From assembly GCA_000165345.1 (NCBI GenBank), contig CM000436.1, forward strand, positions 128,001 to 192,000: a stretch of 64,000 nt of DNA, in the 5' to 3' direction. Made by a program: the position numbers and the translations under genes. This document shows, in pieces, positions 37,295 through 64,000 of this stretch (positions are counted from its first letter, which is position 1; each line of letters starts with the position of its first letter). The notes under the pieces are model-generated. The model was not told the DNA's origin. It searched no databases and saw only the letters and a program-made list of their open reading frames with translations.

Positions 37295-40200
37295 TTATGA
37301 TCTTAAGTTTTGTGTACAATAATTAACCAAAGCTACTAAGGCAGCTACTACTTTCTCCATGTTACTGATATTTTTCTGATTAACTTGAGAGGACTTGCAT
37401 ATAAAACAATTATTACACATTCCTCCACTAATGCTACTCACTTTTTGATTTGTAACTAAACATTTTCCAGATCCTCTTACAAATTTATCTAATGATTTTA
37501 AATTGGTTAAATCTGCTTCTGAAGCTTTAAGTAAGAGTTTCATAAGTTCTAAAACTTCTCTTTTGCAACCATCTTTGATTGAGAGTGAGTATTTTTCGAT
37601 GGTTTTTATAGAGATTTTTGATACATCCAAATTTTTTGTATCTAATGTTCCATTTGAATTAAACCTTAATTGGACTTGTTGGCCACCTGACGAAGTAGAT
37701 ATTTGTGGCTTTGGCTGTGGGTATGACGGTGGTTTTTGATATGGTGGTGGTATTTGTGGCTTTGATGGTGGGTATGACGGTGGCTTTTGGTATGGTGGTG
37801 GTATTTGTGGCTTTGGCTGTGGGTATGATGGTGGTTTTTGGTATGGTGGTGGTATTTGTGGCTTCGGTTGTGGGTATGACGGTGGCTTTTGATATGGCGG
37901 TGGCATTTGTGGCTTTGATGGTGGGTATGACGGTGGTTTTTGTGCTAATGGATCATCCGAAGGCATTAATCCTAAATTTGATTTTCCGATACCATCTTCC
38001 AGCAATCTGATTAGTTCTGACTTACTATGATTTACAGAATCAAATAATTCTTGTAAATTTTTAGTATCACCGCTCAAAGAAATATATTCTAAGTATTTTC
38101 CATAAACCTCTTTATCATTTGTCAAGTCTTCAACAGCTGATCTTTTTTTTCTTTTGATTTTAGTTCCCGGCAAAATAGGTACTTTTGGTCTAACAGCAGG
38201 ATCTGGCATTCCGTTTTTTTTTGTTGATACGCCAAATGAAGATGGTATGTTTTTAATAGAAGCTGGTGTTTTTCTCTTCTTTTCCCTTGATTCTTGATGA
38301 TTCTTTGCAATGGCTTCTTCCAAAGCTTCCAAAAGAGCTTCCTTACTATCATTTCCAGTCATTTGTATGAAATCAGCCAAATTTAAAGGTGAATCAGAAG
38401 ATGAGACTGTCCCTACATATTCTAAATACTTTTCTGTAACTTTCTCATCAACTTGCATGTAGTCGTATCCGGAACCAACGCCCCAGCCTCCCTCAGCTCC
38501 TCCGACTGCACCTCCCTCAGCTCCTCCAGTTGCACCTCCCTCAGCTCCTCCGACTGCACCTCCCTCAGCTCCTCCGACTGCACCTCCCCCAGCTCCTCCG
38601 ACTGCACCTCCCTCAGCTCCTCCGACTACACCTCCCTCAGCTCCTCCAGTTGCACCTCCCCCAGCTCCTCCACTCGCTCCAGCTCCTCCACCTACTCCTG
38701 CTCCTCCACCTACTCCTGCTCCTCCACTTGCACCTCCCTCAGCTCCACCACCTGCTAAACTTTGGCTATATTCACCCAGCATACTTAATAAAGCAGCTTT
38801 GTCATAGCCTGAAGCCTTAATCAACTCTTCCAAACTTAAAGAATTTCCTTGTACAATAGACATGTATGCAGCATAAGCCATTAAAACTTCTTCATCACTT
38901 TTAAGCGTACTAAGTAAATCTATTCCAACTTCTGCTCCTTCACCACCTCCACCTCCACCTCCACTAGCTGTGCTAAATAAATTTTGGATAAGCTCACGCA
39001 TTAAATTTAATAAGTAATCCTTATCATAATTTGAAATTTTAATCAAATATTTCAAATCTAAAGGATTTTCTACAGAAGAAGAATATAAATTATAAGTTTC
39101 TATAATTGCTTTATCTGCTAAGAAAACTTCAGCTAAATCAAGAACTTGTTCAGCTTTATCTTCTCGTTTCTTTTGTTCAGAAGGATCAACTGTTGATTGA
39201 GTTTCATTTTTTAAGTTTTGGATAAATATTTTTAAATAATCAACTATGCCATATTTTTCTTCCTTAGCTAAACCCTTAATCTCTTCCAAACTTAAAGCCG
39301 GCTCATCCTTAGTTAAACTTAAATAAACTCCATATAAATTCATTACTTCTTCATCATCTTCATTTGTTCCTTCTCCTCCTCCTGTTACTGCTACACCTCC
39401 TTCTATTCCGCCTGCTGATACAGGCTCATCATGTTGATAATTTTTATCTAAACTATGCTTGAAAAATTGTTTCATTTTACTATTAAACTGATCAATTTCA
39501 TCTTTAGTCACTTCCATACTTGATATAAGATTTCCTAAAGCACCTAAAATACGATTGTACAAACTATAATTAACATATTTTAGTTTGATAAATTCCTTGC
39601 ATATATCAAATAATATTTTACTTCTACGAATTGCTGCTTTATGTACCAAAATTTCTTTCTTTAAAATTTTATCTTCTTTTAGCTTATTAATAGCTTTGTT
39701 CTTCAGTTTTTCTTTTAAGCTAATTAATTTATTCCATTGTTCTCTTAAAGTACTTTCTATTTGTGTTAGATTCAAATCATTACAAATAAATGGAAAATTT
39801 CCCAAATCAAGTAATGATGGATGTATTAACTTTTTAATTGACAATTCTTCTCCAGAAAGATCAGAAATATGTTCCCAAGACGATCTATATTTATTCTTTT
39901 CTTTACAATTTTTCAAAAGATCATTTAATCTTTCCAAAATATCTAAAAATATATTTGAAAGTAAATTTTTTTTTAATATGCTTTCTCTGTAACAATAACT
40001 TTTATTATTTGCTCTGCCAATAGAAGAATTTAATCTAACCAATAATTCCGAAATTGTTGAAATTCTTCGATGAATTAGTAATATCAACTCTGAATTACAT
40101 CCTTCTAAATATTTTACTGCATATTCCACTTCCTTTGGTAATAAAAGTGACTTTAATTCTAGAGCTAAAGATTGAATATTTCTGTTTAAATCGCATCTTA

Positions 40201-43200
40201 AAAGTGTTACTAAATTTAAATGATCTAAAATTACATTTTCTGGAGGAGCTTCAATTAATAAATTTATTGGATAATTTCCTTCATCACCATCTCCTCCGCC
40301 AGATCCACTTGGAACTGTTGGTTCGTTTGAAACTGTTGGTTTGTTTGGAATTGTTGGTTTGTTTGGAACTGTCGGTTTGTTTGGAACTGTCGGTTCGTTT
40401 GGAACTGTTGGTTCATTTGGAACTATTGGTTTGTTTGGAACTGTTGGTTTGTTTGGAAATGTCGGTTCGTTTGGAATTGTTGGTTTGCTTGGAAACGTTG
40501 GTAATACTGGTACACCTCCTGGTATTCCACTTGGTCTTCCTGATGATCCAGGCCAAGCTGGAATTGTTGGTTTCCCTGGGGCTCCTGCTCCTGCTCCTGC
40601 TCCTGCTTCTGGTCCTGGTCCTGGTCCTGCTCCTGCTTCTGGTCCTGGTCCTGGTCCTGCTCCTGCTTCTGGTCCTGGTCCTGGTCCTGCTTCTGGTCCT
40701 GGTCCTGGTCCTGCTTCTGGTCCCGGTCCTGCTCCTGCTCCTGGAGAAGATTCTTCAGAATCAAAGAATGAAGAATCATCCACTGAAGAAACATCAGTTA
40801 AAGGAGGAACAAACCCTCCAGAAAGAGTTGAGAAAGAGCAACTCTGTGTTGGAATAAATTTAGGACTCATAATATCAACTGGTACAAACAAACCATGACC
40901 ACTAGCACTTTTATAAGCACTTGGAGATTTCAATTCACTCGTAAGTTTATACAACTCAAGCAAAAGCTTCAAAAACTCAGCAGAAAATATATACTTTTGA
41001 GCTTTAAACATGCTATTACTACTCAAGAAACTTGTATGTTGCAAACCCGTATCAGCTGAACTACTTATATTATTCTTTTCTACATTCAACCCAGAAATAG
41101 TTCGTACTTCTAAAATCTTCTTTAACAACTTCTCGAGAAATTCAACCAACTTATTAATACTCGGAGTCAAAATAGAAAAGTCTTCATAAACGAATGAAGA
41201 AACTAATCCCATAGTTAATTGATATATAGACAAATCTTTCAATTCTGATCCTCTTGTAGTTGTACTTCCATCCAAAGATTGAATTGCTGTCTCCAATAAT
41301 CCTTCATATTCTAACTTTGCTTTACAATCATTTATAACTTTAAGAAGTTCTTCTAATAAACCAGGAATAAAACTTGACAAAACCGTATAATTATTTGCAT
41401 GTTTTTTATCAAGTTTTTTCCCATTTTCCAATATCACTTCTAATTGCAAATATCTATAATATAATAATGCCAATACCAAACTGTGACACTTTTGATTACC
41501 TTCCACCAACTTTGCGTCATTATTCACTAACTGAGTAAGTGTACTCTTATCAATTGATTTAACTTTTATATTAAACTTCATGGGTGGTTTAATCTCTTTT
41601 GTTTTTACCATATGCATTGTTAAAAGAGCTGTTAACAAACTTAATTGAAATTTTAATGAAAAAAATTGTAAATTATATTGCTCTCTCGATTCAGGACTTT
41701 GAATTTGTTTCAATTTGTTTAATATATATTCAAAAGTTTTTAAAAGTTGCAAAATTCTTTCTAGTAACATTAAAATCATATTAGTAGTAAGATTTTTTGC
41801 AAGATTTGTTTGATCTGATATTGAAAACCATCTAAATAATACTTTAAGTGAAGATAAATCATCTGTTTCGTAATAATCTCTTGGTAATCTTGATACAACT
41901 GGAAACAAATTTTCATCAAAATCAAGATTCAAATTTTCATTATTTACAGTAAATCTTAATTCAACACATTTTCTATATACAAATTGTAAAACTGGTTGAA
42001 TTTGGCTGTATATTGCCCTAAACCTAATAAATTTATCATTTTCCACAGTAACTCCTGTTGTAGTTGTTTGTGTTTGACCATTTAAATTTTCGAATAATTT
42101 CTTTAATGGTATTTTATTAAATTCCTTAAATTTTTCCAATTCTTTTTTAAGCATTTCAAAACTAACTGCTTGACATATTTGAGGTAAAGCCGTTGTTATA
42201 AAACTATTTCTCTTTTCATCATAAAAGCAAAGCATCTGCAAAACTTCAGTAAATAATATGGATTTATTCAATATAGCTAAAGTATTTTTAAGTATCATAA
42301 TTCTCTGATCTAAGAAATTATCAGTATTTTTTAAATAATCCAAAATTTTCTTTTCAGATTCTAATTGATTTAGAATTACTGTTCTTTTGTAAAAATGTGA
42401 CTTTAAAGTCTTTTGAATCTTTTCAATTTGGATTTGAAACGAATCATTCAAACATTTTTTAAAATCAAAATTAATTAAAGCTTCCAATACTTGTGAAATT
42501 GAAGTTAATAATTTATCTGTAAACAAAATAAGAGTTTTTGGCTGAAAATAACTAATTACCAAATTTTTAGGATCAAGTTCTCTTTATTTTTGAGTTTGAA
42601 TATATAGTTCGTGTTTATTCATAGGTAATCGACTTGCATCCTTTAATCTTTGAATTCGTCGTTTTTCTCTAGCATGAGCCTTTTGCTTACGTCTCATTTG
42701 CAAATTATCTAGATCTTGTTGTGATCTACCAGAATAAGGACTTGTAAATGGTCTATACATGACATCTTCATTAGCTACTTTTCCAGTAAGAATATCCTTT
42801 CTATATTTGCATTTATCAAGTTTAAGTTGATATTTAACAATCCTAGAAGCAAGTTCTTTCATTTGTAAGTACAACCTTTTAATGGCATTAGCTCTTTTAT
42901 CACATACTTCGCATCTATTTCCTTTTTGTTTTTTAATATTAGGATTATGGCACGTATGACTATCATAATTGCTTTTAAGAATTTTGGAATTATCTTTAAT
43001 TTTATTAAATTCAGCAGTCAATTTTTCGATTTTTGACTCCAATTGAGCTATTAAAATTCTTATTTCATTTAACGGAATATTGCTTAAAGTCCAATGTGTA
43101 ATTTCATTTTCTATTGTTAATTTAGAATTCTGGCTAAATCCTGGAAATTTTAAATAACATAACTCACTTATAATGATATTGGATTTATTATTAAGAAAGA

Positions 43201-43270
43201 TACCATTTTTCTTATAATTTGCCAAAAATACACTTAACAAAAAGATTACAAAATTTAACCACGTATTCAT
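37295..43270 (-). CDS. family member A of a giant secreted modular repeat protein (about 1990 aa as one frame). A single in-frame TAA at 42584–42586 splits it into a 227-aa N-terminal piece (42587..43270) and a 1755-aa remainder (37295..42562). It may be a pseudogene or carry a sequencing error.
   Basis: The N-terminus is a signal peptide, MNTWLNFVIFLLSVFLANY. Track ORFs 42584..43270 and 37295..42562 lie in the same frame, separated only by the TAA and 7 codons. Paralog C (60303..62249) reads straight through the equivalent position (..LYIQSQKQREMDFQTLVISYFQPK..). The modules, N to C, are:
- a basic coiled-coil N-domain containing GNRCEVCDKRANAIKRL;
- a large helical domain;
- PGPEAG and PTVPN(K/E)P repeats;
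- a conserved central domain;
- Gly-rich linkers such as GGAEGGAVGG;
- four to five helical motifs of about 50 aa (..SLSLEELIKASGYDKAALLSML..);
- 16-aa repeats PPPYQKPPSYPQPKPQI, five copies;
- a C-terminal 4-Cys domain (..GCKREVLELMKLLLKASEADLTNLKSL..GSGKCLVTNQ..GGMCNNCFICKSS..LVNYCTQNLRS). Confidence 0.6.
37700..37960. repeat. coding minisatellite of about five 48-bp units, encoding the 16-aa repeat PPPYQKPPSYPQPKPQI of member A
   Basis: The unit ggtggtatttgtggctttg(g/a)(c/t)(t/g)gtgggtatgacggtgg(t/c)ttttg(a/g)tat is visibly reiterated on the plus strand. Confidence 0.8.
38465..38760. repeat. coding minisatellite with a 30-bp unit cctccgactgcacctccctcagct (GGAEGGAVGG)n in member A
   Basis: The tandem reiteration is visible in the sequence. 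The track shows ORFs in all frames there. Confidence 0.8.
40300..40745. repeat. two adjacent coding minisatellites in member A. The 21-bp unit ggaactgttggtttgtttgga is repeated about 10 times and encodes PTVPN(K/E)P heptads. The 18/24-bp cctggtcctggtcctgctcctgcttctggt units encode PGPGPEAG.
   Basis: The tandem reiteration is visible in the sequence. Confidence 0.8.
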
Positions 43271-45255: not shown

Positions 45256-48200
45256 TTATCTTGAGTTTTTTTTACAATATTCAACCAAAACTTCCAATGC
45301 AGCTACTATTTTCTCCATATTTCTGACATTTCTATTATTAACTCTAGAGGAGTTACATACAAAACAATTATTGCATGTTCCTCCACTTCCTGACCTTTGA
45401 TCTGTATTTAAACATCTTGCTGATCCTTTTAAAAATCGTTCCAATGACTTTAAATTATTTAAATCTGCTATTGAAACTTTGAGTAAATGTAATAAAAGAT
45501 TTAAAGTAGCATTTGAACAACCACTTCTAACTGAATTTGAATGTTTTTCAATGGTTTTTGTGGAAATACTTGATGTATCTAAATTAGTTTTATCTAATGT
45601 TCCATTAGGATTAAACTTTAATTGAACTTTGTGCGAACCAATGATTGAAGTCGGTATTTGTGATGGTTGTGATGGTTGTGACGGTTGTGGATATGCTGGT
45701 GGTTGAGGATATGCCGGTGGTTGTGATGGTTGTGGGTACCTTGGTGGCTGCGGATATGCCGGTGGTTGTGATGGTTGTGGGTACCTTGGTGGTTGCGGAT
45801 ATGGAGGCGGCTTTGATGGCTGTGGATATGCTGGTGGTTGAGGATATGCTGGTGGCTGTGATGGTTTTGAAGTTGATCGTGGTGGACGTGGCTTCGGCTG
45901 TGATGGACCAAATGAAGATAATATATCATTGATAGAGGAAGGCGCTGGTTTTCTTTTTGGTATTTCTGTTCTTGAAGCTTGATTATTCGTTTCAATAGCT
46001 TGTTGTAAAATTTGTAAAAGAGTTTCTTTATTTTGATTTCCTGGCATATCTATGAAATCAATCAAATCTAAAGGAGTATTTGGAGGCACTACTGATCTTA
46101 CATAATCTAAATAGTATTTCAATACAACTTCATCATTTAATAAGAGCCTGCTTTCATCATCCAAAGCTTCTCCTCCTTCTGCTCCTCCACTTGCTCCTGC
46201 TCCTCCACTTGCTCCTGCTCCCCCACCTGCTCCTGCTCCTCCACCTGCTCCTGCTCCTCCACCTGCTCCGCCTCCATAAACATTCCCTGTAGAATTTGTA
46301 TTATATTCACTTAAAATATCCAATAAAGTATTTTTATCGTAACCTGCAACTTCAATTAATTCTTTCAAACTCAAGGATTGTTTTACCATAGAAACATACA
46401 AAGCATAAGCTTCTAATACTTGTTCATCTGACATAAGAGCATTAATTAAACTTGATGCACTTGTTCCTTCTTCACCTTCATTATCATTTCTTCCTGGTGT
46501 TTCTCCATTTGTGTTATTATTTTGTGAAGTTTTGATAAATTCAATCATTAAAGATAATAAGTAACTTTTATCGTAACTTGAAAGTTCGATCAAATCTTCT
46601 AAATTTGAAGGATTCTCAACAACGGAAGAATATAAAGCATAAGTTTCCAAAACTTGTTGGTCATTTATTATAGATGAAACGATGTTATTAGTTGATTGAA
46701 CCCCATTTTTTAAGCTTTGAACAATATTTTTTAAATATTCAGATAAACTTTGCCCTTCTGCTGAAGCTAATTCCTTGATACTATTCAAACTTAAAGGCGC
46801 TTCACCAGTAGCTAAACTCAAATAAAATGCATATAAGTTTTGTATTTCTTCATCTTCATCAAGATTTTCTTCCTCCCCTGCTCCTCCACTTCCGCCTCCA
46901 CCTCCACTTCCGCCTCCACTTCCACTTCCGCCTCCACTTCCACCTCCACCAGCTCCTCCACTTCCACCTCCGCCTGCTCCTCCACCTCCGCCTGCTCCTC
47001 CACCTCCGCCTGCTCCTCCACCTCCACTTCCTCCTCCCGGCGTATATTCATCCAGATCTAACTTAAATAATCGCCTTATTTTATCATTAAGCTTATTAAC
47101 TTCAACGTTAGTTACTTTCATACTTGAATGAATATCTTTTAAAGCAGTTGAAACTTTATTAAATAAACTATTATTAACATATTGTAATTGCACAAATTCT
47201 TTACAAGCTTCAAGTAGTAATTTATTTCTTCTAACTGCTGCTTTATATATCAAAGTTTGTGTTTTTAAACTTTTAATATCTTTACTTTTGCTTACAATAC
47301 CCTTACTTTTAAGATTTTCTTTTAGATTTAATGTTTTATCCCATAATTTTTTTAAATAAATTTCTGCTTTTGGTAAATTTGAATCAACACAAGTAAATGG
47401 AAATCTTGCTAGTTTATTAAATGGTGGATATATTAAACTTTTAATTGAAGATTCTTCTCCCAAAAGACTAGTAATATGTTTCCAAGGCAATTTATATTTA
47501 TTCATTTCTTTACATTTATCTAAAATAGCATTTAATTTTCCCAAAATATCTAAAAATATATTTGAAAGTAAATTCCTCTTTAGTAAAGTTTCTTTGTAAC
47601 AAATACTTTTAGTATGTTTTATACTTGCACCATCAGAAGAACTTAATCTATTTATTAATTCCATTACTGTTGAAATTCTTTGATTTATAAGCAATAATAA
47701 TCCTAAATCACATCCTTGTAAATATCTTATTGCATATTCAACTTTTTTTGGTAATAACATTGATTTTAATTTCTCTGTCAAAGTTTGAATACTTCCTTCA
47801 AAATCACATCTCAAAATTACTGATAAATCCAAATTGTTCAAAATTTCAGATTCTGCATCAACTCCTTGAATTGTTACATCTATTGGATAATTTTGTGGAT
47901 CCTCTTCATTCTCATCATTTCCTATTCCAGACCCACCCGGTCTTTCTGGCCAACCTCCTCCACCACCACCTGCTCCACCGCTTGACCCTGGTAGTCCACT
48001 CCCTCCTGATTGACTTGGCATTTCTGGTTGAGTTGGTATTCCTGGTTGAGTTGGTATTCCTGGTTGAGTACCTGGAAATGCTGGAGCTCCTGGTCGAGTT
48101 GGCTTTCCACCAAATCCTTGAGCCCCTGGTAATACTGGCACTCCCCCAGGCACAGCAATAGGCTTTGATGCTTCTTGCCCACCTGGTCCGCTTGGAACTC

Positions 48201-48714
48201 CTGGTTTTGTTGTTCCTCCTGGCATTGCTGGTCCACTTGTTCCTCCTGGCATTCCTGGCCAACTTGGAACTACTGGTTTTGCTGGTCCACTTGGTCCTCC
48301 TGGTGTTGCTGGTCCTCCTGGCATTGCTGGTCCACTTGGTCCTCCTGGTATTCCTGGTCCTCCTGGTGTTCCTGGTCCTCCTGGTATTCCTGGTCCTCCC
48401 AGAACTCCTAAAATCAAATCTCCCGACGAACTAAATATTTCTGTAAAATCATTTGAATCTGAAAATAAATCAAAACCATATAATTGTTGTTCTGGTAATA
48501 TACCATTCTCCAATGGAAATGGAGGAAAAACAAATTCCATCAATTTTGGGAATAAATTCCAATTCATTGTCAAAAAATGTGGTTCTCCTTTATTTTCTAA
48601 TGAATTATATAATGTTAAAATTCCAAATCTAAAGCAATATTTTATTAATCCATGATAAACCTTACTTAAAGTTGATATTAAACTCATTTCATTCATACTT
48701 TGTTTATCTTTCAA
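45256..48714 (-). CDS. family member B of the same giant secreted modular repeat protein family; the 5' end is incomplete and continues into low-quality sequence and the gap
   Basis: The track ORF of 1152 aa stops at TAA 45256–45258. It shares domain order and many blocks with member A: the central domain ([32 protein letters not shown]..), the helical motifs, and the C-terminal 4-Cys domain (..[60 protein letters not shown]). Its repeat units differ from A: [12 protein letters not shown] runs, [11 protein letters not shown] 11-mers, and an N-terminal Gly-X-Pro tract. Upstream of 48714 the frame continues with A-like sequence (..NLRSRETSNDIFGG.. compared with ..ILEVRTISGLNVEKNNISS..) but is broken by n calls. 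The true start is therefore not in readable sequence. Confidence 0.55.
45650..45870. repeat. coding minisatellite with a 33-bp unit (ggttgtgatggttgtgggtaccttggtggctgcggatatgccggt type), encoding [11 protein letters not shown]-type 11-mers in member B
   Basis: The tandem reiteration is visible in the sequence. Confidence 0.75.
46170..47045. repeat. Gly/Ala/Ser-rich coding microsatellite blocks in member B (46170–46275 gctcctgctcctccacctgct units; 46880–47040 ccgcctccacttccacctcc units), separated by unique helical-motif coding sequence
   Basis: This is read directly. The units encode GGAGGGG and [12 protein letters not shown] runs. Confidence 0.7.
47930..48415. repeat. cctggt-based imperfect repeats encoding a Gly-X-Pro and (Ser/Ala)-X-Pro triplet tract ([42 protein letters not shown]...) near the readable N-terminus of member B
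   Basis: The tract consists of reiterated cctggtcctcctggt(a/g)ttcctggt units, with Pro at every third residue over about 45 codons. Confidence 0.7.
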
Positions 48715-49980
48715 ATTTTTTATTTCCTCTTTTCTTTCTTGAATTTTNTCCANTNNTGTACTGTAAATTCTTCAAAAATCTTCTTCTGNACATATATTTT
48801 GGNNCTATCTTCTCTTTTATTAAATAATTTTNTAAAACATTATCAATATGTATTATGTATTATTACTACTACTACCACCAAAAATATCATTACTTGTTTC
48901 TCTTGATCTTAAATTTAATTCATTCAACACTTCATTATTAATATTCAAATTTGAACTTTCTTTTGTTATNATTTTNTGAAATTGTTGTACGGAAAATCTC
49001 CTCTTTTAAAGGGTCATATGCTGATATTTGTCCNAAACCNTTATAATATTCAATTNTTCTCACACAACCNAATATTCCTGATGCANGAATAATCTANAGC
49101 TAAACTAANTCCAATCAATNNCTGATATTAATGTATAATAATTACAATTATTACNACNCTCTTNNATATNCCATCATGNAANGTGACTTGNNNTTCTCAT
49201 TCATACTTGAAACTGAATTTACATNCATTNATTCATNAAATNTACTTTCAAATNCTTGNCAATGNTGNNNCTATATGTTAATGNCTTAATAATTGATAAT
49301 TANNATAATNACNAGNTAATAAATGTCCAAATAAATTAATACCTGATGTNAAATCATAAANCATNTTATTTGATNTNTGTGATNCTAGAGATAAACCTTG
49401 TAATACAAATCTTGAAAAATNTTGTANTGAANGTAANATACTTTTGTGTCCAATATATATTTCATTAAATATTGTAATAGNCNTTTNCACATCTTTTAAT
49501 ANTATCTNGCTAANNATAATNATAAAGCTTCAATTATTANTAAAGTTCTNTACTGCTTCTTTTTTGNNATAGAATATTCACTTGAAACAANTTCTGGTGA
49601 TTNGAANTCCATAAAAGTATCCAATGNCTTACGTTTTTTTATTCTATCCCTTATTNATGNNAAAGANTNTATATGAGATTTTAATANNGATATATTAATA
49701 CTTGTACACATCGGGTAAACCTGCTAAATTTATTGCAAGATGATTTATTAGTGTATCTAANAATNTGGACAGATATGTATTCATTGTGTTGAATAATCAT
49801 ATTAATTCATCTGATANCAAATTATTNGNCCNTAAANGATCTTTCATGAAAGCCTTATCATAATCTGTTCTACGTTATTTTCAAACTGGACCATTTGNAC
49901 TAAATCATGNCCANTATTAAAGATTAGTAANNATTATCATCATCGNAGNCATTTTGAANAACCCANCCCCANCTGNCCCT

Positions 49981-52900
49981 NNANNNNNNNNNNNNNNNNN
50001 NNNNNNNNNNNNNNNNNNNNNNNNNNNNNNNNNNNNNNNNNNNNNNNNNNNNNNNNNNNNNNNNNNNNNNNNNNNNNNNNNNNNNNNNNNNNNNNNNNNN
50101 NNNNNNNNNNNNNNNNNNNNNNNNNNNNNNNNNNNNNNNNNNNNNNNNNNNNNNNNNNNNNNNNNNNNNNNNNNNNNNNNNNNNNNNNNNNNNNNNNNNN
50201 NNNNNNNNNNNNNNNNNNNNNNNNNNNNNNNNNNNNNNNNNNNNNNNNNNNNNNNNNNNNNNNNNNNNNNNNNNNNNNNNNNNNNNNNNNNNNNNNNNNN
50301 NNNNNNNNNNNNNNNNNNNNNNNNNNNNNNNNNNNNNNNNNNNNNNNNNNNNNNNNNNNNNNNNNNNNNNNNNNNNNNNNNNNNNNNNNNNNNNNNNNNN
50401 NNNNNNNNNNNNNNNNNNNNNNNNNNNNNNNNNNNNNNNNNNNNNNNNNNNNNNNNNNNNNNNNNNNNNNNNNNNNNNNNNNNNNNNNNNNNNNNNNNNN
50501 NNNNNNNNNNNNNNNNNNNNNNNNNNNNNNNNNNNNNNNNNNNNNNNNNNNNNNNNNNNNNNNNNNNNNNNNNNNNNNNNNNNNNNNNNNNNNNNNNNNN
50601 NNNNNNNNNNNNNNNNNNNNNNNNNNNNNNNNNNNNNNNNNNNNNNNNNNNNNNNNNNNNNNNNNNNNNNNNNNNNNNNNNNNNNNNNNNNNNNNNNNNN
50701 NNNNNNNNNNNNNNNNNNNNNNNNNNNNNNNNNNNNNNNNNNNNNNNNNNNNNNNNNNNNNNNNNNNNNNNNNNNNNNNNNNNNNNNNNNNNNNNNNNNN
50801 NNNNNNNNNNNNNNNNNNNNNNNNNNNNNNNNNNNNNNNNNNNNNNNNNNNNNNNNNNNNNNNNNNNNNNNNNNNNNNNNNNNNNNNNNNNNNNNNNNNN
50901 NNNNNNNNNNNNNNNNNNNNNNNNNNNNNNNNNNNNNNNNNNNNNNNNNNNNNNNNNNNNNNNNNNNNNNNNNNNNNNNNNNNNNNNNNNNNNNNNNNNN
51001 NNNNNNNNNNNNNNNNNNNNNNNNNNNNNNNNNNNNNNNNNNNNNNNNNNNNNNNNNNNNNNNNNNNNNNNNNNNNNNNNNNNNNNNNNNNNNNNNNNNN
51101 NNNNNNNNNNNNNNNNNNNNNNNNNNNNNNNNNNNNNNNNNNNNNNNNNNNNNNNNNNNNNNNNNNNNNNNNNNNNNNNNNNNNNNNNNNNNNNNNNNNN
51201 NNNNNNNNNNNNNNNNNNNNNNNNNNNNNNNNNNNNNNNNNNNNNNNNNNNNNNNNNNNNNNNNNNNNNNNNNNNNNNNNNNNNNNNNNNNNNNNNNNNN
51301 NNNNNNNNNNNNNNNNNNNNNNNNNNNNNNNNNNNNNNNNNNNNNNNNNNNNNNNNNNNNNNNNNNNNNNNNNNNNNNNNNNNNNNNNNNNNNNNNNNNN
51401 NNNNNNNNNNNNNNNNNNNNNNNNNNNNNNNNNNNNNNNNNNNNNNNNNNNNNNNNNNNNNNNNNNNNNNNNNNNNNNNNNNNNNNNNNNNNNNNNNNNN
51501 NNNNNNNNNNNNNNNNNNNNNNNNNNNNNNNNNNNNNNNNNNNNNNNNNNNNNNNNNNNNNNNNNNNNNNNNNNNNNNNNNNNNNNNNNNNNNNNNNNNN
51601 NNNNNNNNNNNNNNNNNNNNNNNNNNNNNNNNNNNNNNNNNNNNNNNNNNNNNNNNNNNNNNNNNNNNNNNNNNNNNNNNNNNNNNNNNNNNNNNNNNNN
51701 NNNNNNNNNNNNNNNNNNNNNNNNNNNNNNNNNNNNNNNNNNNNNNNNNNNNNNNNNNNNNNNNNNNNNNNNNNNNNNNNNNNNNNNNNNNNNNNNNNNN
51801 NNNNNNNNNNNNNNNNNNNNNNNNNNNNNNNNNNNNNNNNNNNNNNNNNNNNNNNNNNNNNNNNNNNNNNNNNNNNNNNNNNNNNNNNNNNNNNNNNNNN
51901 NNNNNNNNNNNNNNNNNNNNNNNNNNNNNNNNNNNNNNNNNNNNNNNNNNNNNNNNNNNNNNNNNNNNNNNNNNNNNNNNNNNNNNNNNNNNNNNNNNNN
52001 NNNNNNNNNNNNNNNNNNNNNNNNNNNNNNNNNNNNNNNNNNNNNNNNNNNNNNNNNNNNNNNNNNNNNNNNNNNNNNNNNNNNNNNNNNNNNNNNNNNN
52101 NNNNNNNNNNNNNNNNNNNNNNNNNNNNNNNNNNNNNNNNNNNNNNNNNNNNNNNNNNNNNNNNNNNNNNNNNNNNNNNNNNNNNNNNNNNNNNNNNNNN
52201 NNNNNNNNNNNNNNNNNNNNNNNNNNNNNNNNNNNNNNNNNNNNNNNNNNNNNNNNNNNNNNNNNNNNNNNNNNNNNNNNNNNNNNNNNNNNNNNNNNNN
52301 NNNNNNNNNNNNNNNNNNNNNNNNNNNNNNNNNNNNNNNNNNNNNNNNNNNNNNNNNNNNNNNNNNNNNNNNNNNNNNNNNNNNNNNNNNNNNNNNNNNN
52401 NNNNNNNNNNNNNNNNNNNNNNNNNNNNNNNNNNNNNNNNNNNNNNNNNNNNNNNNNNNNNNNNNNNNNNNNNNNNNNNNNNNNNNNNNNNNNNNNNNNN
52501 NNNNNNNNNNNNNNNNNNNNNNNNNNNNNNNNNNNNNNNNNNNNNNNNNNNNNNNNNNNNNNNNNNNNNNNNNNNNNNNNNNNNNNNNNNNNNNNNNNNN
52601 NNNNNNNNNNNNNNNNNNNNNNNNNNNNNNNNNNNNNNNNNNNNNNNNNNNNNNNNNNNNNNNNNNNNNNNNNNNNNNNNNNNNNNNNNNNNNNNNNNNN
52701 NNNNNNNNNNNNNNNNNNNNNNNNNNNNNNNNNNNNNNNNNNNNNNNNNNNNNNNNNNNNNNNNNNNNNNNNNNNNNNNNNNNNNNNNNNNNNNNNNNNN
52801 NNNNNNNNNNNNNNNNNNNNNNNNNNNNNNNNNNNNNNNNNNNNNNNNNNNNNNNNNNNNNNNNNNNNNNNNNNNNNNNNNNNNNNNNNNNNNNNNNNNN

Positions 52901-55900
52901 NNNNNNNNNNNNNNNNNNNNNNNNNNNNNNNNNNNNNNNNNNNNNNNNNNNNNNNNNNNNNNNNNNNNNNNNNNNNNNNNNNNNNNNNNNNNNNNNNNNN
53001 NNNNNNNNNNNNNNNNNNNNNNNNNNNNNNNNNNNNNNNNNNNNNNNNNNNNNNNNNNNNNNNNNNNNNNNNNNNNNNNNNNNNNNNNNNNNNNNNNNNN
53101 NNNNNNNNNNNNNNNNNNNNNNNNNNNNNNNNNNNNNNNNNNNNNNNNNNNNNNNNNNNNNNNNNNNNNNNNNNNNNNNNNNNNNNNNNNNNNNNNNNNN
53201 NNNNNNNNNNNNNNNNNNNNNNNNNNNNNNNNNNNNNNNNNNNNNNNNNNNNNNNNNNNNNNNNNNNNNNNNNNNNNNNNNNNNNNNNNNNNNNNNNNNN
53301 NNNNNNNNNNNNNNNNNNNNNNNNNNNNNNNNNNNNNNNNNNNNNNNNNNNNNNNNNNNNNNNNNNNNNNNNNNNNNNNNNNNNNNNNNNNNNNNNNNNN
53401 NNNNNNNNNNNNNNNNNNNNNNNNNNNNNNNNNNNNNNNNNNNNNNNNNNNNNNNNNNNNNNNNNNNNNNNNNNNNNNNNNNNNNNNNNNNNNNNNNNNN
53501 NNNNNNNNNNNNNNNNNNNNNNNNNNNNNNNNNNNNNNNNNNNNNNNNNNNNNNNNNNNNNNNNNNNNNNNNNNNNNNNNNNNNNNNNNNNNNNNNNNNN
53601 NNNNNNNNNNNNNNNNNNNNNNNNNNNNNNNNNNNNNNNNNNNNNNNNNNNNNNNNNNNNNNNNNNNNNNNNNNNNNNNNNNNNNNNNNNNNNNNNNNNN
53701 NNNNNNNNNNNNNNNNNNNNNNNNNNNNNNNNNNNNNNNNNNNNNNNNNNNNNNNNNNNNNNNNNNNNNNNNNNNNNNNNNNNNNNNNNNNNNNNNNNNN
53801 NNNNNNNNNNNNNNNNNNNNNNNNNNNNNNNNNNNNNNNNNNNNNNNNNNNNNNNNNNNNNNNNNNNNNNNNNNNNNNNNNNNNNNNNNNNNNNNNNNNN
53901 NNNNNNNNNNNNNNNNNNNNNNNNNNNNNNNNNNNNNNNNNNNNNNNNNNNNNNNNNNNNNNNNNNNNNNNNNNNNNNNNNNNNNNNNNNNNNNNNNNNN
54001 NNNNNNNNNNNNNNNNNNNNNNNNNNNNNNNNNNNNNNNNNNNNNNNNNNNNNNNNNNNNNNNNNNNNNNNNNNNNNNNNNNNNNNNNNNNNNNNNNNNN
54101 NNNNNNNNNNNNNNNNNNNNNNNNNNNNNNNNNNNNNNNNNNNNNNNNNNNNNNNNNNNNNNNNNNNNNNNNNNNNNNNNNNNNNNNNNNNNNNNNNNNN
54201 NNNNNNNNNNNNNNNNNNNNNNNNNNNNNNNNNNNNNNNNNNNNNNNNNNNNNNNNNNNNNNNNNNNNNNNNNNNNNNNNNNNNNNNNNNNNNNNNNNNN
54301 NNNNNNNNNNNNNNNNNNNNNNNNNNNNNNNNNNNNNNNNNNNNNNNNNNNNNNNNNNNNNNNNNNNNNNNNNNNNNNNNNNNNNNNNNNNNNNNNNNNN
54401 NNNNNNNNNNNNNNNNNNNNNNNNNNNNNNNNNNNNNNNNNNNNNNNNNNNNNNNNNNNNNNNNNNNNNNNNNNNNNNNNNNNNNNNNNNNNNNNNNNNN
54501 NNNNNNNNNNNNNNNNNNNNNNNNNNNNNNNNNNNNNNNNNNNNNNNNNNNNNNNNNNNNNNNNNNNNNNNNNNNNNNNNNNNNNNNNNNNNNNNNNNNN
54601 NNNNNNNNNNNNNNNNNNNNNNNNNNNNNNNNNNNNNNNNNNNNNNNNNNNNNNNNNNNNNNNNNNNNNNNNNNNNNNNNNNNNNNNNNNNNNNNNNNNN
54701 NNNNNNNNNNNNNNNNNNNNNNNNNNNNNNNNNNNNNNNNNNNNNNNNNNNNNNNNNNNNNNNNNNNNNNNNNNNNNNNNNNNNNNNNNNNNNNNNNNNN
54801 NNNNNNNNNNNNNNNNNNNNNNNNNNNNNNNNNNNNNNNNNNNNNNNNNNNNNNNNNNNNNNNNNNNNNNNNNNNNNNNNNNNNNNNNNNNNNNNNNNNN
54901 NNNNNNNNNNNNNNNNNNNNNNNNNNNNNNNNNNNNNNNNNNNNNNNNNNNNNNNNNNNNNNNNNNNNNNNNNNNNNNNNNNNNNNNNNNNNNNNNNNNN
55001 NNNNNNNNNNNNNNNNNNNNNNNNNNNNNNNNNNNNNNNNNNNNNNNNNNNNNNNNNNNNNNNNNNNNNNNNNNNNNNNNNNNNNNNNNNNNNNNNNNNN
55101 NNNNNNNNNNNNNNNNNNNNNNNNNNNNNNNNNNNNNNNNNNNNNNNNNNNNNNNNNNNNNNNNNNNNNNNNNNNNNNNNNNNNNNNNNNNNNNNNNNNN
55201 NNNNNNNNNNNNNNNNNNNNNNNNNNNNNNNNNNNNNNNNNNNNNNNNNNNNNNNNNNNNNNNNNNNNNNNNNNNNNNNNNNNNNNNNNNNNNNNNNNNN
55301 NNNNNNNNNNNNNNNNNNNNNNNNNNNNNNNNNNNNNNNNNNNNNNNNNNNNNNNNNNNNNNNNNNNNNNNNNNNNNNNNNNNNNNNNNNNNNNNNNNNN
55401 NNNNNNNNNNNNNNNNNNNNNNNNNNNNNNNNNNNNNNNNNNNNNNNNNNNNNNNNNNNNNNNNNNNNNNNNNNNNNNNNNNNNNNNNNNNNNNNNNNNN
55501 NNNNNNNNNNNNNNNNNNNNNNNNNNNNNNNNNNNNNNNNNNNNNNNNNNNNNNNNNNNNNNNNNNNNNNNNNNNNNNNNNNNNNNNNNNNNNNNNNNNN
55601 NNNNNNNNNNNNNNNNNNNNNNNNNNNNNNNNNNNNNNNNNNNNNNNNNNNNNNNNNNNNNNNNNNNNNNNNNNNNNNNNNNNNNNNNNNNNNNNNNNNN
55701 NNNNNNNNNNNNNNNNNNNNNNNNNNNNNNNNNNNNNNNNNNNNNNNNNNNNNNNNNNNNNNNNNNNNNNNNNNNNNNNNNNNNNNNNNNNNNNNNNNNN
55801 NNNNNNNNNNNNNNNNNNNNNNNNNNNNNNNNNNNNNNNNNNNNNNNNNNNNNNNNNNNNNNNNNNNNNNNNNNNNNNNNNNNNNNNNNNNNNNNNNNNN

Positions 55901-58900
55901 NNNNNNNNNNNNNNNNNNNNNNNNNNNNNNNNNNNNNNNNNNNNNNNNNNNNNNNNNNNNNNNNNNNNNNNNNNNNNNNNNNNNNNNNNNNNNNNNNNNN
56001 NNNNNNNNNNNNNNNNNNNNNNNNNNNNNNNNNNNNNNNNNNNNNNNNNNNNNNNNNNNNNNNNNNNNNNNNNNNNNNNNNNNNNNNNNNNNNNNNNNNN
56101 NNNNNNNNNNNNNNNNNNNNNNNNNNNNNNNNNNNNNNNNNNNNNNNNNNNNNNNNNNNNNNNNNNNNNNNNNNNNNNNNNNNNNNNNNNNNNNNNNNNN
56201 NNNNNNNNNNNNNNNNNNNNNNNNNNNNNNNNNNNNNNNNNNNNNNNNNNNNNNNNNNNNNNNNNNNNNNNNNNNNNNNNNNNNNNNNNNNNNNNNNNNN
56301 NNNNNNNNNNNNNNNNNNNNNNNNNNNNNNNNNNNNNNNNNNNNNNNNNNNNNNNNNNNNNNNNNNNNNNNNNNNNNNNNNNNNNNNNNNNNNNNNNNNN
56401 NNNNNNNNNNNNNNNNNNNNNNNNNNNNNNNNNNNNNNNNNNNNNNNNNNNNNNNNNNNNNNNNNNNNNNNNNNNNNNNNNNNNNNNNNNNNNNNNNNNN
56501 NNNNNNNNNNNNNNNNNNNNNNNNNNNNNNNNNNNNNNNNNNNNNNNNNNNNNNNNNNNNNNNNNNNNNNNNNNNNNNNNNNNNNNNNNNNNNNNNNNNN
56601 NNNNNNNNNNNNNNNNNNNNNNNNNNNNNNNNNNNNNNNNNNNNNNNNNNNNNNNNNNNNNNNNNNNNNNNNNNNNNNNNNNNNNNNNNNNNNNNNNNNN
56701 NNNNNNNNNNNNNNNNNNNNNNNNNNNNNNNNNNNNNNNNNNNNNNNNNNNNNNNNNNNNNNNNNNNNNNNNNNNNNNNNNNNNNNNNNNNNNNNNNNNN
56801 NNNNNNNNNNNNNNNNNNNNNNNNNNNNNNNNNNNNNNNNNNNNNNNNNNNNNNNNNNNNNNNNNNNNNNNNNNNNNNNNNNNNNNNNNNNNNNNNNNNN
56901 NNNNNNNNNNNNNNNNNNNNNNNNNNNNNNNNNNNNNNNNNNNNNNNNNNNNNNNNNNNNNNNNNNNNNNNNNNNNNNNNNNNNNNNNNNNNNNNNNNNN
57001 NNNNNNNNNNNNNNNNNNNNNNNNNNNNNNNNNNNNNNNNNNNNNNNNNNNNNNNNNNNNNNNNNNNNNNNNNNNNNNNNNNNNNNNNNNNNNNNNNNNN
57101 NNNNNNNNNNNNNNNNNNNNNNNNNNNNNNNNNNNNNNNNNNNNNNNNNNNNNNNNNNNNNNNNNNNNNNNNNNNNNNNNNNNNNNNNNNNNNNNNNNNN
57201 NNNNNNNNNNNNNNNNNNNNNNNNNNNNNNNNNNNNNNNNNNNNNNNNNNNNNNNNNNNNNNNNNNNNNNNNNNNNNNNNNNNNNNNNNNNNNNNNNNNN
57301 NNNNNNNNNNNNNNNNNNNNNNNNNNNNNNNNNNNNNNNNNNNNNNNNNNNNNNNNNNNNNNNNNNNNNNNNNNNNNNNNNNNNNNNNNNNNNNNNNNNN
57401 NNNNNNNNNNNNNNNNNNNNNNNNNNNNNNNNNNNNNNNNNNNNNNNNNNNNNNNNNNNNNNNNNNNNNNNNNNNNNNNNNNNNNNNNNNNNNNNNNNNN
57501 NNNNNNNNNNNNNNNNNNNNNNNNNNNNNNNNNNNNNNNNNNNNNNNNNNNNNNNNNNNNNNNNNNNNNNNNNNNNNNNNNNNNNNNNNNNNNNNNNNNN
57601 NNNNNNNNNNNNNNNNNNNNNNNNNNNNNNNNNNNNNNNNNNNNNNNNNNNNNNNNNNNNNNNNNNNNNNNNNNNNNNNNNNNNNNNNNNNNNNNNNNNN
57701 NNNNNNNNNNNNNNNNNNNNNNNNNNNNNNNNNNNNNNNNNNNNNNNNNNNNNNNNNNNNNNNNNNNNNNNNNNNNNNNNNNNNNNNNNNNNNNNNNNNN
57801 NNNNNNNNNNNNNNNNNNNNNNNNNNNNNNNNNNNNNNNNNNNNNNNNNNNNNNNNNNNNNNNNNNNNNNNNNNNNNNNNNNNNNNNNNNNNNNNNNNNN
57901 NNNNNNNNNNNNNNNNNNNNNNNNNNNNNNNNNNNNNNNNNNNNNNNNNNNNNNNNNNNNNNNNNNNNNNNNNNNNNNNNNNNNNNNNNNNNNNNNNNNN
58001 NNNNNNNNNNNNNNNNNNNNNNNNNNNNNNNNNNNNNNNNNNNNNNNNNNNNNNNNNNNNNNNNNNNNNNNNNNNNNNNNNNNNNNNNNNNNNNNNNNNN
58101 NNNNNNNNNNNNNNNNNNNNNNNNNNNNNNNNNNNNNNNNNNNNNNNNNNNNNNNNNNNNNNNNNNNNNNNNNNNNNNNNNNNNNNNNNNNNNNNNNNNN
58201 NNNNNNNNNNNNNNNNNNNNNNNNNNNNNNNNNNNNNNNNNNNNNNNNNNNNNNNNNNNNNNNNNNNNNNNNNNNNNNNNNNNNNNNNNNNNNNNNNNNN
58301 NNNNNNNNNNNNNNNNNNNNNNNNNNNNNNNNNNNNNNNNNNNNNNNNNNNNNNNNNNNNNNNNNNNNNNNNNNNNNNNNNNNNNNNNNNNNNNNNNNNN
58401 NNNNNNNNNNNNNNNNNNNNNNNNNNNNNNNNNNNNNNNNNNNNNNNNNNNNNNNNNNNNNNNNNNNNNNNNNNNNNNNNNNNNNNNNNNNNNNNNNNNN
58501 NNNNNNNNNNNNNNNNNNNNNNNNNNNNNNNNNNNNNNNNNNNNNNNNNNNNNNNNNNNNNNNNNNNNNNNNNNNNNNNNNNNNNNNNNNNNNNNNNNNN
58601 NNNNNNNNNNNNNNNNNNNNNNNNNNNNNNNNNNNNNNNNNNNNNNNNNNNNNNNNNNNNNNNNNNNNNNNNNNNNNNNNNNNNNNNNNNNNNNNNNNNN
58701 NNNNNNNNNNNNNNNNNNNNNNNNNNNNNNNNNNNNNNNNNNNNNNNNNNNNNNNNNNNNNNNNNNNNNNNNNNNNNNNNNNNNNNNNNNNNNNNNNNNN
58801 NNNNNNNNNNNNNNNNNNNNNNNNNNNNNNNNNNNNNNNNNNNNNNNNNNNNNNNNNNNNNNNNNNNNNNNNNNNNNNNNNNNNNNNNNNNNNNNNNNNN

Positions 58901-60302: not shown

Positions 60303-62249
60303 TCAATTCTGTTTTAATAAATTTGCTATATAAGTTTGATCATCATTTTTTCCATGATTTTTCTTATAAAATCTTCTACCATTCTCTAAAATTAAATCTA
60401 ATTGTAAATGTCTATAATATAATAATGATAATAAAGTTTGATTACATGTTTTTTGTTTTGTACTATTAATCAATTTTAAATCATTACTTATTAATTGATT
60501 AAGTGAATCTTTATCAGTTGATTTAATCTTAGTCTTAAATTGTTTAGATGTTATTGTTATTTCTTTTGTTTTAATCATATGCATTGTTAAAATACTCATT
60601 AATTTATTTAATTGGAATTTTAATTCTGAACATTTTAATATATATTGATTTCTTGTTTCAATCTTTGTTATATTTTTTATTTTATTTAATATATATCTAT
60701 ATATCTTTAAAAAATCTAAAATCTTTTCTAATATAACTAAAATCATATTCATACTAAGATTATTTGCAAGATTGATTTGATTTGATGATGAAAACCATAT
60801 AATAAAGTCATTAAATGATAATGAATCAATAGCTTTTGTATAATATTCTTGTGGAAATCTTGAAACAATAGGAAATAAAAATTCATCAAAATCAAGATTT
60901 AAATCTTCATTATTTACAGTAAATCTTAATTCAACACATTTTTTATATATAAATTGTAATAATGGCCAAATTTGATTATGTATTGCTTTAAATTTATTAT
61001 ATACATCTTTATCCATATTAATTTCTGTTGAAGAAATTTTTAATTGTTGATTAAAATTATCTAATAATCTCTTTATTGTTATATTATTAAATTGTTTAGA
61101 TAGATCTAATTCTTTTCTTAACATTAAAAAATTCTCTGATTCACATATTGTTGGTAATGATGATGATATAAAATTATTAGTTTTAAGATCATATAAACAA
61201 AGCGTTTGTAAAACTTGAGTATATAAGATTGATCTATTTAATATATTTAAAGTATTTTTTAAAATATTAATTCTTGTTTCTAAATATTGATCATTTTTTC
61301 CAGCAGAAGTTAAATTATCTTTCTCTGTTTGTAAATGATTTAAACTTGAAGTATTTTTCTCATAATGTGATTTTAAAGTTTTTTGTATTTTTTCAATTTT
61401 AATTTGGAATAAATCATCCAAACATTTTTTAAAATCAAATTGGATTAAATTTTCTAATACTTGTGAAATTATAATTAATAATTTATGTGTAAATAAAATA
61501 AGACTTTTTGGTTGAAAATAACTGATTACCAAAGTTTGAAAATCCATTTCTCTTTGTTTTTGAGATTGAATATATAGATTATGTTTATTATAAGTTAATA
61601 TACCAGAATTAACAGCATCTAATAATCTTTTATTTCTTCGTATTTCTCTTTCATGAGCTTTATCTTTACGTCTTTTTTGTAAATCAGCTTTTTCTTGTAA
61701 TGTTTTACCTTGATAATGAGTTGTGAAAGGTCTATACATAACTTCTTTTTCAACTTGTTCTCCTTTAAGAATACTTTTTCTATATTTACATTTATCAAGT
61801 TTAAGTTGATATGTAACAATTTTTGAAGCAAGTTCTTTCATTTTTAATTGTAATCTTTTAATAGCATTAGCTCTTTTTTCACATGTATTACATCTATTAC
61901 CTTTTTGTTTTTTAGTTCCTTCTTGTTGGCATTGATGTTTATCATAATTTTCTCGAATAGATTTAGAATTTGCTTTAAATTTATTGAATTCAGTTGTTAA
62001 TGTTTCAATTTCTGATTCTAATTGAGATATTAAATTTTCTATTTGAGATAATGGAACACTACTTAGAATCCAATGTGTAATTTCACTATTTATTGTTAAT
62101 TTAGGATTTTTGGTAAATCCTGGAAAATTTAGATAAGATGATTCAATAATGTTATTTAATTTATTATGAAGGAAAATTGAATTCTTTTCATTATTTACCA
62201 ATAATCCAATTAACAATAAAACTGTAAAATGTATCCATTTATTCATCAT
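60303..62249 (-). CDS. family member C (5' portion); an uninterrupted N-domain plus the start of the helical domain. The 3' portion is frameshifted near the contig edge and runs into the 10-kb gap.
   Basis: ATG is at 62247–62249, and the signal peptide is MMNKWIHFTVLLLIGLLVN. The first 230 aa are about 45–55% identical to A's N-terminal piece. The protein then continues in frame into the helical domain (VISYFQPKSLILFTHKLL..; A has VISYFQPKTLILFTDKLL..). Downstream of 60303, A-like coding continues in shifted frames (..YQLT / MGLISSFYQDDLVKLTPDINK..) until the N run begins at 59984. Confidence 0.55.
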   Translation of the reverse strand: MMNKWIHFTVLLLIGLLVNNEKNSIFLHNKLNNIIESSYLNFPGFTKNPKLTINSEITHWILSSVPLSQIENLISQLESEIETLTTEFNKFKANSKSIRENYDKHQCQQEGTKKQKGNRCNTCEKRANAIKRLQLKMKELASKIVTYQLKLDKCKYRKSILKGEQVEKEVMYRPFTTHYQGKTLQEKADLQKRRKDKAHEREIRRNKRLLDAVNSGILTYNKHNLYIQSQKQREMDFQTLVISYFQPKSLILFTHKLLIIISQVLENLIQFDFKKCLDDLFQIKIEKIQKTLKSHYEKNTSSLNHLQTEKDNLTSAGKNDQYLETRINILKNTLNILNRSILYTQVLQTLCLYDLKTNNFISSSLPTICESENFLMLRKELDLSKQFNNITIKRLLDNFNQQLKISSTEINMDKDVYNKFKAIHNQIWPLLQFIYKKCVELRFTVNNEDLNLDFDEFLFPIVSRFPQEYYTKAIDSLSFNDFIIWFSSSNQINLANNLSMNMILVILEKILDFLKIYRYILNKIKNITKIETRNQYILKCSELKFQLNKLMSILTMHMIKTKEITITSKQFKTKIKSTDKDSLNQLISNDLKLINSTKQKTCNQTLLSLLYYRHLQLDLILENGRRFYKKNHGKNDDQTYIANLLKQN

Positions 62250-63360: not shown

Positions 63361-64000
63361 TTAATTTTCTTCTAGAAAACCAAGTAACATTTGAATCAAA
63401 AGTTCTTTATCAAATCCTGAAGATTCGATCAATTGTTTTAAAGTGAGTGGTTCTTCAATTAATGACAAATATAATGAATACAAATTTTGAACTTCTGGAT
63501 CTTTTAAAAAGGACGAGTAATCGTTATTTTCTTGATTTGATTGAGAACTAATATTACTTATTGGCTTTGACTGAATTATTGGTAAATTAGGTTCTTCAGT
63601 TCCCTCTGTATAAATATCAGACAATAATACAATAGACGGACTATTAAAGCCACTGGACTCACCATATGCAGGGGCAGGGGTAGGAGTAGGGGTATAGACA
63701 GCTCCAACACCAGCACCAACACCAGTACCAGCATCAGCACCAGTACCAGCATCAGCACCAGTACCAACACCAGAACCAGTACCAACACCAGAACCAGTAC
63801 CAACACCAGCACCAGAAGCTCCAAGAGAAAATACTTGAGAAATTCTTGAATTGAACTGGCTGATTTGAAGATCGCTAATGACTAAGGAACTAAATAAATT
63901 TTCTAAAACATCCAATATATCAATTGTAATGTGTGAATTTAGTTGAAAATAATTTAAAAATTCTTCACAAATGGCTGTTAATTGTTCATTTCTAGTTATT
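63361..64000 (-). CDS. family member D (partial; continues beyond the window end). It has a Gly/Thr/Ala/Val-rich repeat and one ESSGFDK helical motif, then stops.
   Basis: The minus-strand frame is open from the window edge (ITRNEQLTAICEEFLNYFQ..) to TAA at 63361–63363. It encodes (GAGVGTGSGVGTG..GADAGTGADAGTG) repeats and DPEVQNLYSLYLSLIEEPLTLKQLIESSGFDKELLIQMLLGFLEEN. That segment matches the LSLEELIKASGYDKAALLSML motif of members A and B. No family-like coding follows the stop. Confidence 0.4.
   Translation of the reverse strand, partial: ITRNEQLTAICEEFLNYFQLNSHITIDILDVLENLFSSLVISDLQISQFNSRISQVFSLGASGAGVGTGSGVGTGSGVGTGADAGTGADAGTGVGAGVGAVYTPTPTPAPAYGESSGFNSPSIVLLSDIYTEGTEEPNLPIIQSKPISNISSQSNQENNDYSSFLKDPEVQNLYSLYLSLIEEPLTLKQLIESSGFDKELLIQMLLGFLEEN

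Follow-up and report, generated by a model that had tools for sequence, protein, structure and literature searches.

The large, low-complexity proteins encoded by two paralogous genes on chromosome 8 of Cryptosporidium parvum Iowa II end in a real, conserved domain of about 130 residues, which carries six cysteines and is predicted to fold as a helical hairpin. The two genes, here called members A and B, lie in a 64,000-nucleotide stretch of DNA (GenBank assembly GCA_000165345.1, contig CM000436.1, positions 128,001 to 192,000 of the forward strand), hereafter the window. They correspond to cgd8_660_670 (A) and cgd8_680_690 (B), which the available parts of four earlier reports catalogue as paralogous "large low complexity proteins" (PMC4407392, PMC4637869, PMC6532270, PMC7371110). 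Those same parts treat the genes as species-specific or copy-number markers and describe neither the C-terminal domain nor its cysteine pattern or fold.

The domain comprises the last ~120-130 codons of each open reading frame (ORF) and reaches the stop codon (Table 1), and exactly two copies were found in the window by tblastn. A preliminary description of the window had quoted terminal peptides of A and B, and these are indeed the true C-terminal ends of both proteins. Its strand and its cysteine count needed correcting: the feature lies on the minus strand, with the same interval full of stops when translated on the plus strand, and six cysteines are present where a four-cysteine pattern had been described. 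They follow the pattern C-x34-C-x12/14-C-x2-C-x2-C-x26-C (C-x34-C-x14-C-x2-C-x2-C-x26-C in A) and occupy positions 41, 76, 91, 94, 97 and 124 of the 130 residues in A, numbered here Cys1 to Cys6. The two tails share 57% identity over 141 residues (E 2e-51) and, as had been noted, their NGTLD, ADLxNLKSL and NMEKxVAAL motifs are identical and the domain immediately follows a Pro-rich repeat at the extreme C-terminus. A further C. parvum sequence (P0026) has a different number of these repeats, with a change of one residue in the domain.

Table 1. Positions in the window of the C-terminal domains, their parts and the genes that carry them (pLDDT, predicted local distance difference test score)
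Feature	Position	Strand	Remarks
Six-Cys domain of member A, 130 residues	37298..37687	minus	stop codon 37295-37297
A predicted helix 1, residues 27-37	37577..37609	minus	DSSP on AlphaFold2 model
A Cys1	37565-37567	minus	just ahead of helix 2
A predicted helix 2, residues 43-73, hairpin arm one	37469..37561	minus	contains ADLxNLKSL; AlphaFold2 model
A Cys2	37460-37462	minus	just past helix 2
A variable loop, residues 78-90	37418..37456	minus	between Cys2 and Cys3; pLDDT <50
A invariant CxxCxxC (Cys3, Cys4, Cys5; CNNCFIC)	37397..37417	minus	start of helix 3; alignment columns C91, C94, C97
A predicted helix 3, residues 95-126, hairpin arm two	37310..37405	minus	contains NMEKxVAAL; AlphaFold2 model
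A Cys6, invariant	37316-37318	minus	at end of helix 3
Six-Cys domain of member B	45259..45648	minus	stop codon 45256-45258
B domain Cys codons, first bases	45517, 45412, 45373, 45364, 45355, 45274	minus	
A Pro/Tyr-rich repeat	37697..37945	minus	PPSYPQPKPQIPPPYQK, ~5 copies; directly upstream of domain; reads as flexible stalk
B Pro/Tyr-rich repeat	45652..45870	minus	PPAYPQP...; upstream of domain
Whole member A gene	37295..43270	minus	1991 codons; signal-peptide-like start; in-frame TAA at 42584-42586 (codon 229)
Member A long ORF	37295..42562	minus	ends in six-Cys domain
Member A upstream ORF, 228 codons	42584..43270	minus	in frame with 37295..42562; signal-peptide-like start
Member B long ORF	45256..48714	minus	ends in six-Cys domain
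Member B 3' part, annotated cgd8_680	45256..49983	minus	enters assembly gap 49984-59983
Member B 5' part, annotated cgd8_690	60303..62249	minus	signal-peptide-like start MMNKWIHFTVLLLIGLLVNN
A ~50-residue module repeats, residues ~1306-1770	~37960-39355	minus	
B ~50-residue module repeats			residues 2697-2990 of full-length ORF in L003
A N-terminal Cys module	~42790-43090	minus	
B N-terminal Cys module	61770-62070	minus	

Conservation across Cryptosporidium

Similarity between A and B alone is no evidence of a domain, because the two are paralogues that align over their whole length, with A equivalent to B minus approximately residues 830-2220 in BLASTP segment maps. Accordingly, of the proposal that the segment is shared by members of an array, the discrete and conserved C-terminal module stands but not the modular sharing, as the segment is the tail of two full-length paralogues. 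We retrieved syntenic loci via the neighbouring WD40 gene from the chipmunk genotype I, C. ubiquitum, C. canis, C. felis, C. ryanae, C. xiaoi and one more Cryptosporidium. Gene order was the same in all loci (L002-L010), with the WD40/Ctf4 gene, the ribosomal L23a gene and a giant gene on the opposite strand, and the gene adjoining L23a ended with the domain in all seven of the other Cryptosporidium loci fetched. In the segment maps, the similarity extended beyond the tail to the N-terminal region and central helical blocks when A was compared with B and with the proteins of the chipmunk genotype, C. canis, C. felis, C. ryanae, C. xiaoi and C. ubiquitum.

Identity to the domain of A falls to 20-28% in the most divergent copies, and the CxxCxxC motif and Cys6 are still invariant in alignments of eight and nine sequences (CxxCxxC also in L010). 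No sequence lacks Cys2, and the sole replacement of Cys1 is in one C. ubiquitum sequence, where the assembly (L004) has Tyr at this position (SGYKAD) and keeps Cys6; a closely related 954-residue protein (P0027) retains Cys1 (VGCTIE), so that the Tyr is either a real polymorphism leaving Cys6 unpaired or an assembly error. The spacer between Cys2 and Cys3 ranges from 4 to 29 residues among species, and the flanking helices stay in register. In every species examined the domain remains at the extreme C-terminus, despite changes in repeats, internal modules and overall protein length (~1800 to 3200 residues). Because its cysteines are kept across species down to 20-28% identity and its fold is confidently predicted, the segment is a real module, the conserved C-terminal domain of the L23a-adjacent gene.

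Predicted fold and comparison with known families

AlphaFold2 predicted the structure from four sequences with a pLDDT of 80.4 and a predicted template modelling score of 0.73; a model from two sequences (pLDDT 61.7) was too weak for use. In the former, an extended N-terminal segment and a short helix (27-37) pack on an antiparallel hairpin of two long helices (43-73 and 95-126), between which residues 78-90 are disordered. Conserved hydrophobic positions recur in a heptad-like fashion along helix 2 (46, 49, 53, 60, 63, 66, 69/70), and since such stripes are conserved along each of the long helices as well as the N-terminal segment, the model would have a closed core without a spare stripe. 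For an antiparallel hairpin that turns at residues 73/95, the numbers of facing residues add up to ~168, which would place Cys41 near Cys124 and Cys76 near Cys91/94, and bridge residues 41 and 128 of the model agree in making the regions of Cys1 and Cys6 neighbours. The two antiparallel helices expected of a stapled alpha-hairpin are thus present in the model, and its best structural neighbours in Foldseek were all antiparallel hairpins, led by the topoisomerase I linker hairpin (E 1.2). Taken together, the predicted helical-hairpin fold is reasonably supported.

The domain had not been recognised in the preliminary description, according to which a clear match to a known domain would make it ordinary; no EGF, PAN, saposin, 6-Cys or cytokine fold was among the matches listed in the fold searches. 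Pfam held no family for either the whole proteins or the domain; weak matches to zf-CXXC (E 0.004) and NADH_4Fe-4S (E 0.075), each in one of eight members, reflect the CxxCxxC motif. An exhaustive search of 1.84 billion representative proteins with a profile of A and B gave three true matches, all from Cryptosporidium, and two further hits (P0029 and P0030) that are tandem-repeat artefacts. The domain is therefore genus-restricted at the sensitivity of a two-sequence profile, which would probably miss copies as divergent as those of C. ryanae and C. xiaoi. A word-indexed protein search with the domain of A and with a nine-sequence profile returned nothing, not even the query itself, and carries little weight, as the exact A and B sequences are absent from the collection.

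Individual candidates were rejected on similar grounds. The top match among PDB sequence profiles, interleukin-2, was not significant (E 0.17), and neither Pfam nor the two fold searches returned a cytokine. An EGF-like domain had no Pfam match at E values up to 10 and the predicted structure is all-helical; PAN/apple and apicomplexan 6-Cys (s48/45) domains likewise had no Pfam match and are at odds with the helical prediction, and no PAN structure was among the matches listed. The domain does not belong to the saposin-like (SapB) family, with no Pfam or PDB sequence match. A CXXC-type zinc finger (PF02008) needs two CGxCxxC motifs, eight cysteines and two zinc ions, and only one CxxCxxC is present here, while the fourth cysteine and the proline of the ferredoxin-type 4Fe-4S motif (CxxCxxCxxxCP) are missing in all ten sequences.

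In sequence the tail domain is an orphan, and its predicted fold would make it a variant of a well-known design, the helical hairpin stapled by cysteines. CHCH/twin-CX9C and small-Tim twin-CX3C proteins are disulfide-stapled alpha-hairpins of the mitochondrial intermembrane space, and their two antiparallel helices joined by inter-arm disulfides are a design that the tail domain would share through its putative bonds. It differs in its far longer cysteine spacing (~Cx34C in one arm, Cx26-32C in the other), in the extra CxxCxxC at the loop and in its predicted passage through the secretory pathway rather than the intermembrane space, and sequence similarity to these proteins was not detected. 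Saposin-like domains resemble it in being small and helical with six cysteines, and their nested outer disulfide, which links the first helix to the last, is a feature that the tail domain would share through its putative bonds. They lack CxxCxxC, however, and form a compact bundle of four to five helices, in contrast to the long two-helix hairpin and short helix predicted here.

Possible roles of the domain

Hydrophobic, signal-like N-termini were found in A, B and the C. ryanae and C. xiaoi proteins, and an earlier report describes cgd8_690 as signal-peptide-containing (PMC4407392); we infer that the cgd8_660_670 and cgd8_680_690 proteins are secreted. Since a signal peptide implies entry into the secretory pathway and the cysteine count is even, the six cysteines would most likely form three intramolecular disulfides. 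Cys1 and Cys6, at the open end of the predicted hairpin, would clamp that end, whereas at the closed end the variable loop would be knotted by Cys2 together with the three cysteines of CxxCxxC; the disulfide stabilisation envisaged in the preliminary description is thus plausible. We propose that the segment folds autonomously, is found only in Cryptosporidium, and closes cgd8_660_670, cgd8_680_690 and their single-copy L23a-adjacent counterparts as a rigid knob on a flexible, length-variable Pro/Tyr-rich stalk. Non-covalent docking of this knob to a partner or to another copy would then hold in place the C-terminus of a protein that is long and mostly extended. We tentatively prefer such a disulfide-stapled docking or self-association module at the end of the stalk, giving it somewhat less than an even chance. 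Neither a hydrophobic tail nor a GPI-like (glycosylphosphatidylinositol) signal was found in the domain and, because it has no such tail, it would not itself be a membrane anchor.

Several points weigh against a docking module. The docking role is an argument from architecture, the structure model was built on only four sequences, and we infer the disulfide pairing only from the helix register. The Tyr at Cys1 in C. ubiquitum (L004), with Cys6 kept, is awkward for an obligatory Cys1-Cys6 bond. Among the conserved hydrophobic positions of the alignment there is no spare hydrophobic stripe that would suggest self-association, and apart from the cysteines and a few other residues a strongly constrained interaction surface is not evident. 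The ratio of nonsynonymous to synonymous substitution rates (dN/dS) in the domain is 0.42-0.61, no lower than in the rest of this fast-evolving protein. In addition, the A copy of the domain may not be made in this strain, as judged from a premature stop codon described below.

Intermolecular disulfides could alternatively join the giant proteins tail-to-tail, or tail-to-head through a cysteine-bearing N-terminal hairpin, into a cross-linked matrix. Gel-forming mucins and von Willebrand factor build a cross-linked matrix of this kind through their C-terminal cystine-knot (CTCK) domains. The resemblance lies in a giant secreted protein that has low-complexity spacers and carries a cysteine-bearing module at its extreme C-terminus, which makes CTCK a possible functional analogue for end-to-end assembly. 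Moreover, cysteine-bearing helical modules are found at both ends of the Cryptosporidium proteins (C-x12-CxxC-x30-C at the N-terminus), a motif of CxxC, a ~26-residue helix and a further cysteine (CxxC-x25/26-C) recurs internally and at the N-terminus, and odd numbers of cysteines in the domains of C. ubiquitum and C. xiaoi would leave an unpaired thiol. However, most species have six cysteines, an even number that could all pair within one molecule; CTCK domains are beta-rich cystine knots of ~11 cysteines, to which the helical, six-cysteine tail shows no sequence or fold match; and homology of the tail to the N-terminal and internal modules, of which it might have been a diverged copy, was unsupported by hhalign (probabilities of 0.6% and 5.8%). 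We regard covalent multimerisation as unlikely. Rather less probable in our view is a metal site, in which Cys2 and CxxCxxC would bind zinc as Zn(Cys)4 or, with lower probability, an iron-sulfur cluster, held in a helical scaffold, with only Cys1-Cys6 forming a disulfide. These four clustered cysteines are invariant while the spacer between Cys2 and Cys3 varies freely, CGxCxxC, the core motif of CXXC zinc fingers, occurs in three species, and an internal module of C. ryanae and C. xiaoi contains CxxC-x7-CxxC. Yet the zf-CXXC and NADH_4Fe-4S matches are weak and confined to single members, with the other seven of eight unmatched, the motifs themselves are incomplete as described above, and a signal peptide would direct the protein into the secretory pathway, an oxidising environment in which cysteines in clusters normally form pairs.

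The domain might also have no separable function, being simply the folded end of a fast-evolving structural protein whose cysteines serve stability or export quality control, with the copy in A part of a decaying duplicate. Its dN/dS equals that of the rest of the protein, and member A is cut by a TAA at codon 229 in both Iowa II and IOWA-ATCC, where the annotation splits it into two genes of 228 aa and 1667 aa. A further C. parvum assembly (GCA_048859185.1, L002) has GAA at codon 229 but carries another TAA at codon 590, and its gene model avoids this stop by means of a 30-nt "intron". These two independent nonsense alleles suggest, at the level of sequence, that copy A is decaying or dispensable, and because a premature stop precedes its domain, which may thus not be made, a function is better sought in B. 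Consistent with this, only peptides derived from B appear in a proteomic table (PMC13241007 S1 Table), and a single copy is reportedly kept by most other Cryptosporidium species (PMC6532270, PMC7371110). On the other hand, the domain holds its position at the extreme C-terminus despite the large changes in length, repeats and modules noted above, and a third paralogue shows that a protein of this type can end without it, so that the L23a-adjacent gene has not kept the domain trivially. We consider the absence of any separable function improbable. More speculatively, the tail and the cysteine-bearing N-terminal hairpin could be complementary end-pieces that polymerise the giant proteins, covalently or through a shared metal site, into a Cryptosporidium-specific extracellular or host-interface scaffold, modulated between lineages by the gain of a second copy in C. 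parvum, its absence in C. hominis and the nonsense alleles of copy A; we think this quite improbable.

Genes, expression and further modules of the locus

The window is part of C. parvum Iowa II chromosome 8, has a G+C content of ~28%, and contains RFC1 and WD40/Ctf4 ORFs for which identical C. parvum entries exist (among them EAK87502/XP_625523). A run of N at 49984-59983 separates the two annotated parts of member B. In the gap-free IOWA-ATCC assembly, cgd8_690 and cgd8_680 form a single ORF of 3228 codons (L003 3755..13441) with its own signal-like start. The ORFs, the 10-kb gap, the signal-peptide-containing N-terminal piece and the paralogy all agree with the literature on cgd8_660_670 and cgd8_680_690, and C. 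hominis Chro.80081 is grouped with these "large low complexity protein" paralogues. Compared with IOWA-ATCC, the nominal 10-kb gap covers only ~2.7 kb of real sequence. B lies within a segment that is absent from C. hominis, according to four reports (PMC4407392, PMC4637869, PMC6532270, PMC7371110), and the published "19,048-bp deletion" of that species would then be ~11.7 kb, equal to one A-to-B repeat unit.

In a pull-down from lysates of cells infected for 3 h, peptides of cgd8_680 and cgd8_690 were recovered with modest enrichment and low counts (PMC13241007 S1 Table). Because peptides of both halves were detected 3 h after infection, B is translated early in infection. The RNA of cgd8_680 is low and not female-enriched, with log2 counts per million of ~4.6 in asexual stages, 4.9 in females in vitro and 2.4 in females in vivo (Tandel 2019). 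A role in the oocyst wall, which the Tyr/Pro/Gly-rich composition might have suggested, was rejected in view of this RNA profile and of the peptides present 3 h after infection.

C. parvum and C. hominis differ little in gene content, and these genes belong to the few that set them apart (PMC4407392, PMC4637869); one is a species-specific target for the polymerase chain reaction. They are catalogued, but their products are uncharacterised and the domain is a sequence orphan. A foldable module of 130 residues offers a way into a low-complexity protein of 3228 residues, as antigen, tagging site, deletion target or partner bait. Should it serve in assembly or docking, it would help to explain how such proteins are organised after secretion. 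The scope is that of an orphan fold variant in one genus, and no general principle is changed.

Several further features of the locus were observed. A highly conserved module follows the signal peptide at residues ~60-160 of A and B (NYDSHxC-x12-CxxC(E/D)KRANAIKR...LDKC) and is predicted from its sequence to form a helix-loop-helix with cysteines at the loop; its last cysteine is absent in C. ryanae and C. xiaoi. A helical module of ~50 residues (xDEEVxxxYxxYxS...LSLEELIxxxGYDKxxLLxxL), for which no Pfam or PDB match was found, occurs in five copies in A and four in B, with Gly-rich and Pro-rich spacers between the repeats. The third paralogue, upstream of the other two (63361-64000, minus strand; L003 81..2642; a 1910-aa gene in IOWA-ATCC), has the central helical blocks and the ~50-residue module and ends in ...LLGFLEEN, without the six-cysteine tail. 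Finally, long ORFs that run through the Gly-rich and Pro-rich repeats of A and B in antisense or in another frame (37705-38010, 38453-38758, 40054-40898 and 47730-48262, on various strands) are by-products of repeat composition rather than genes.

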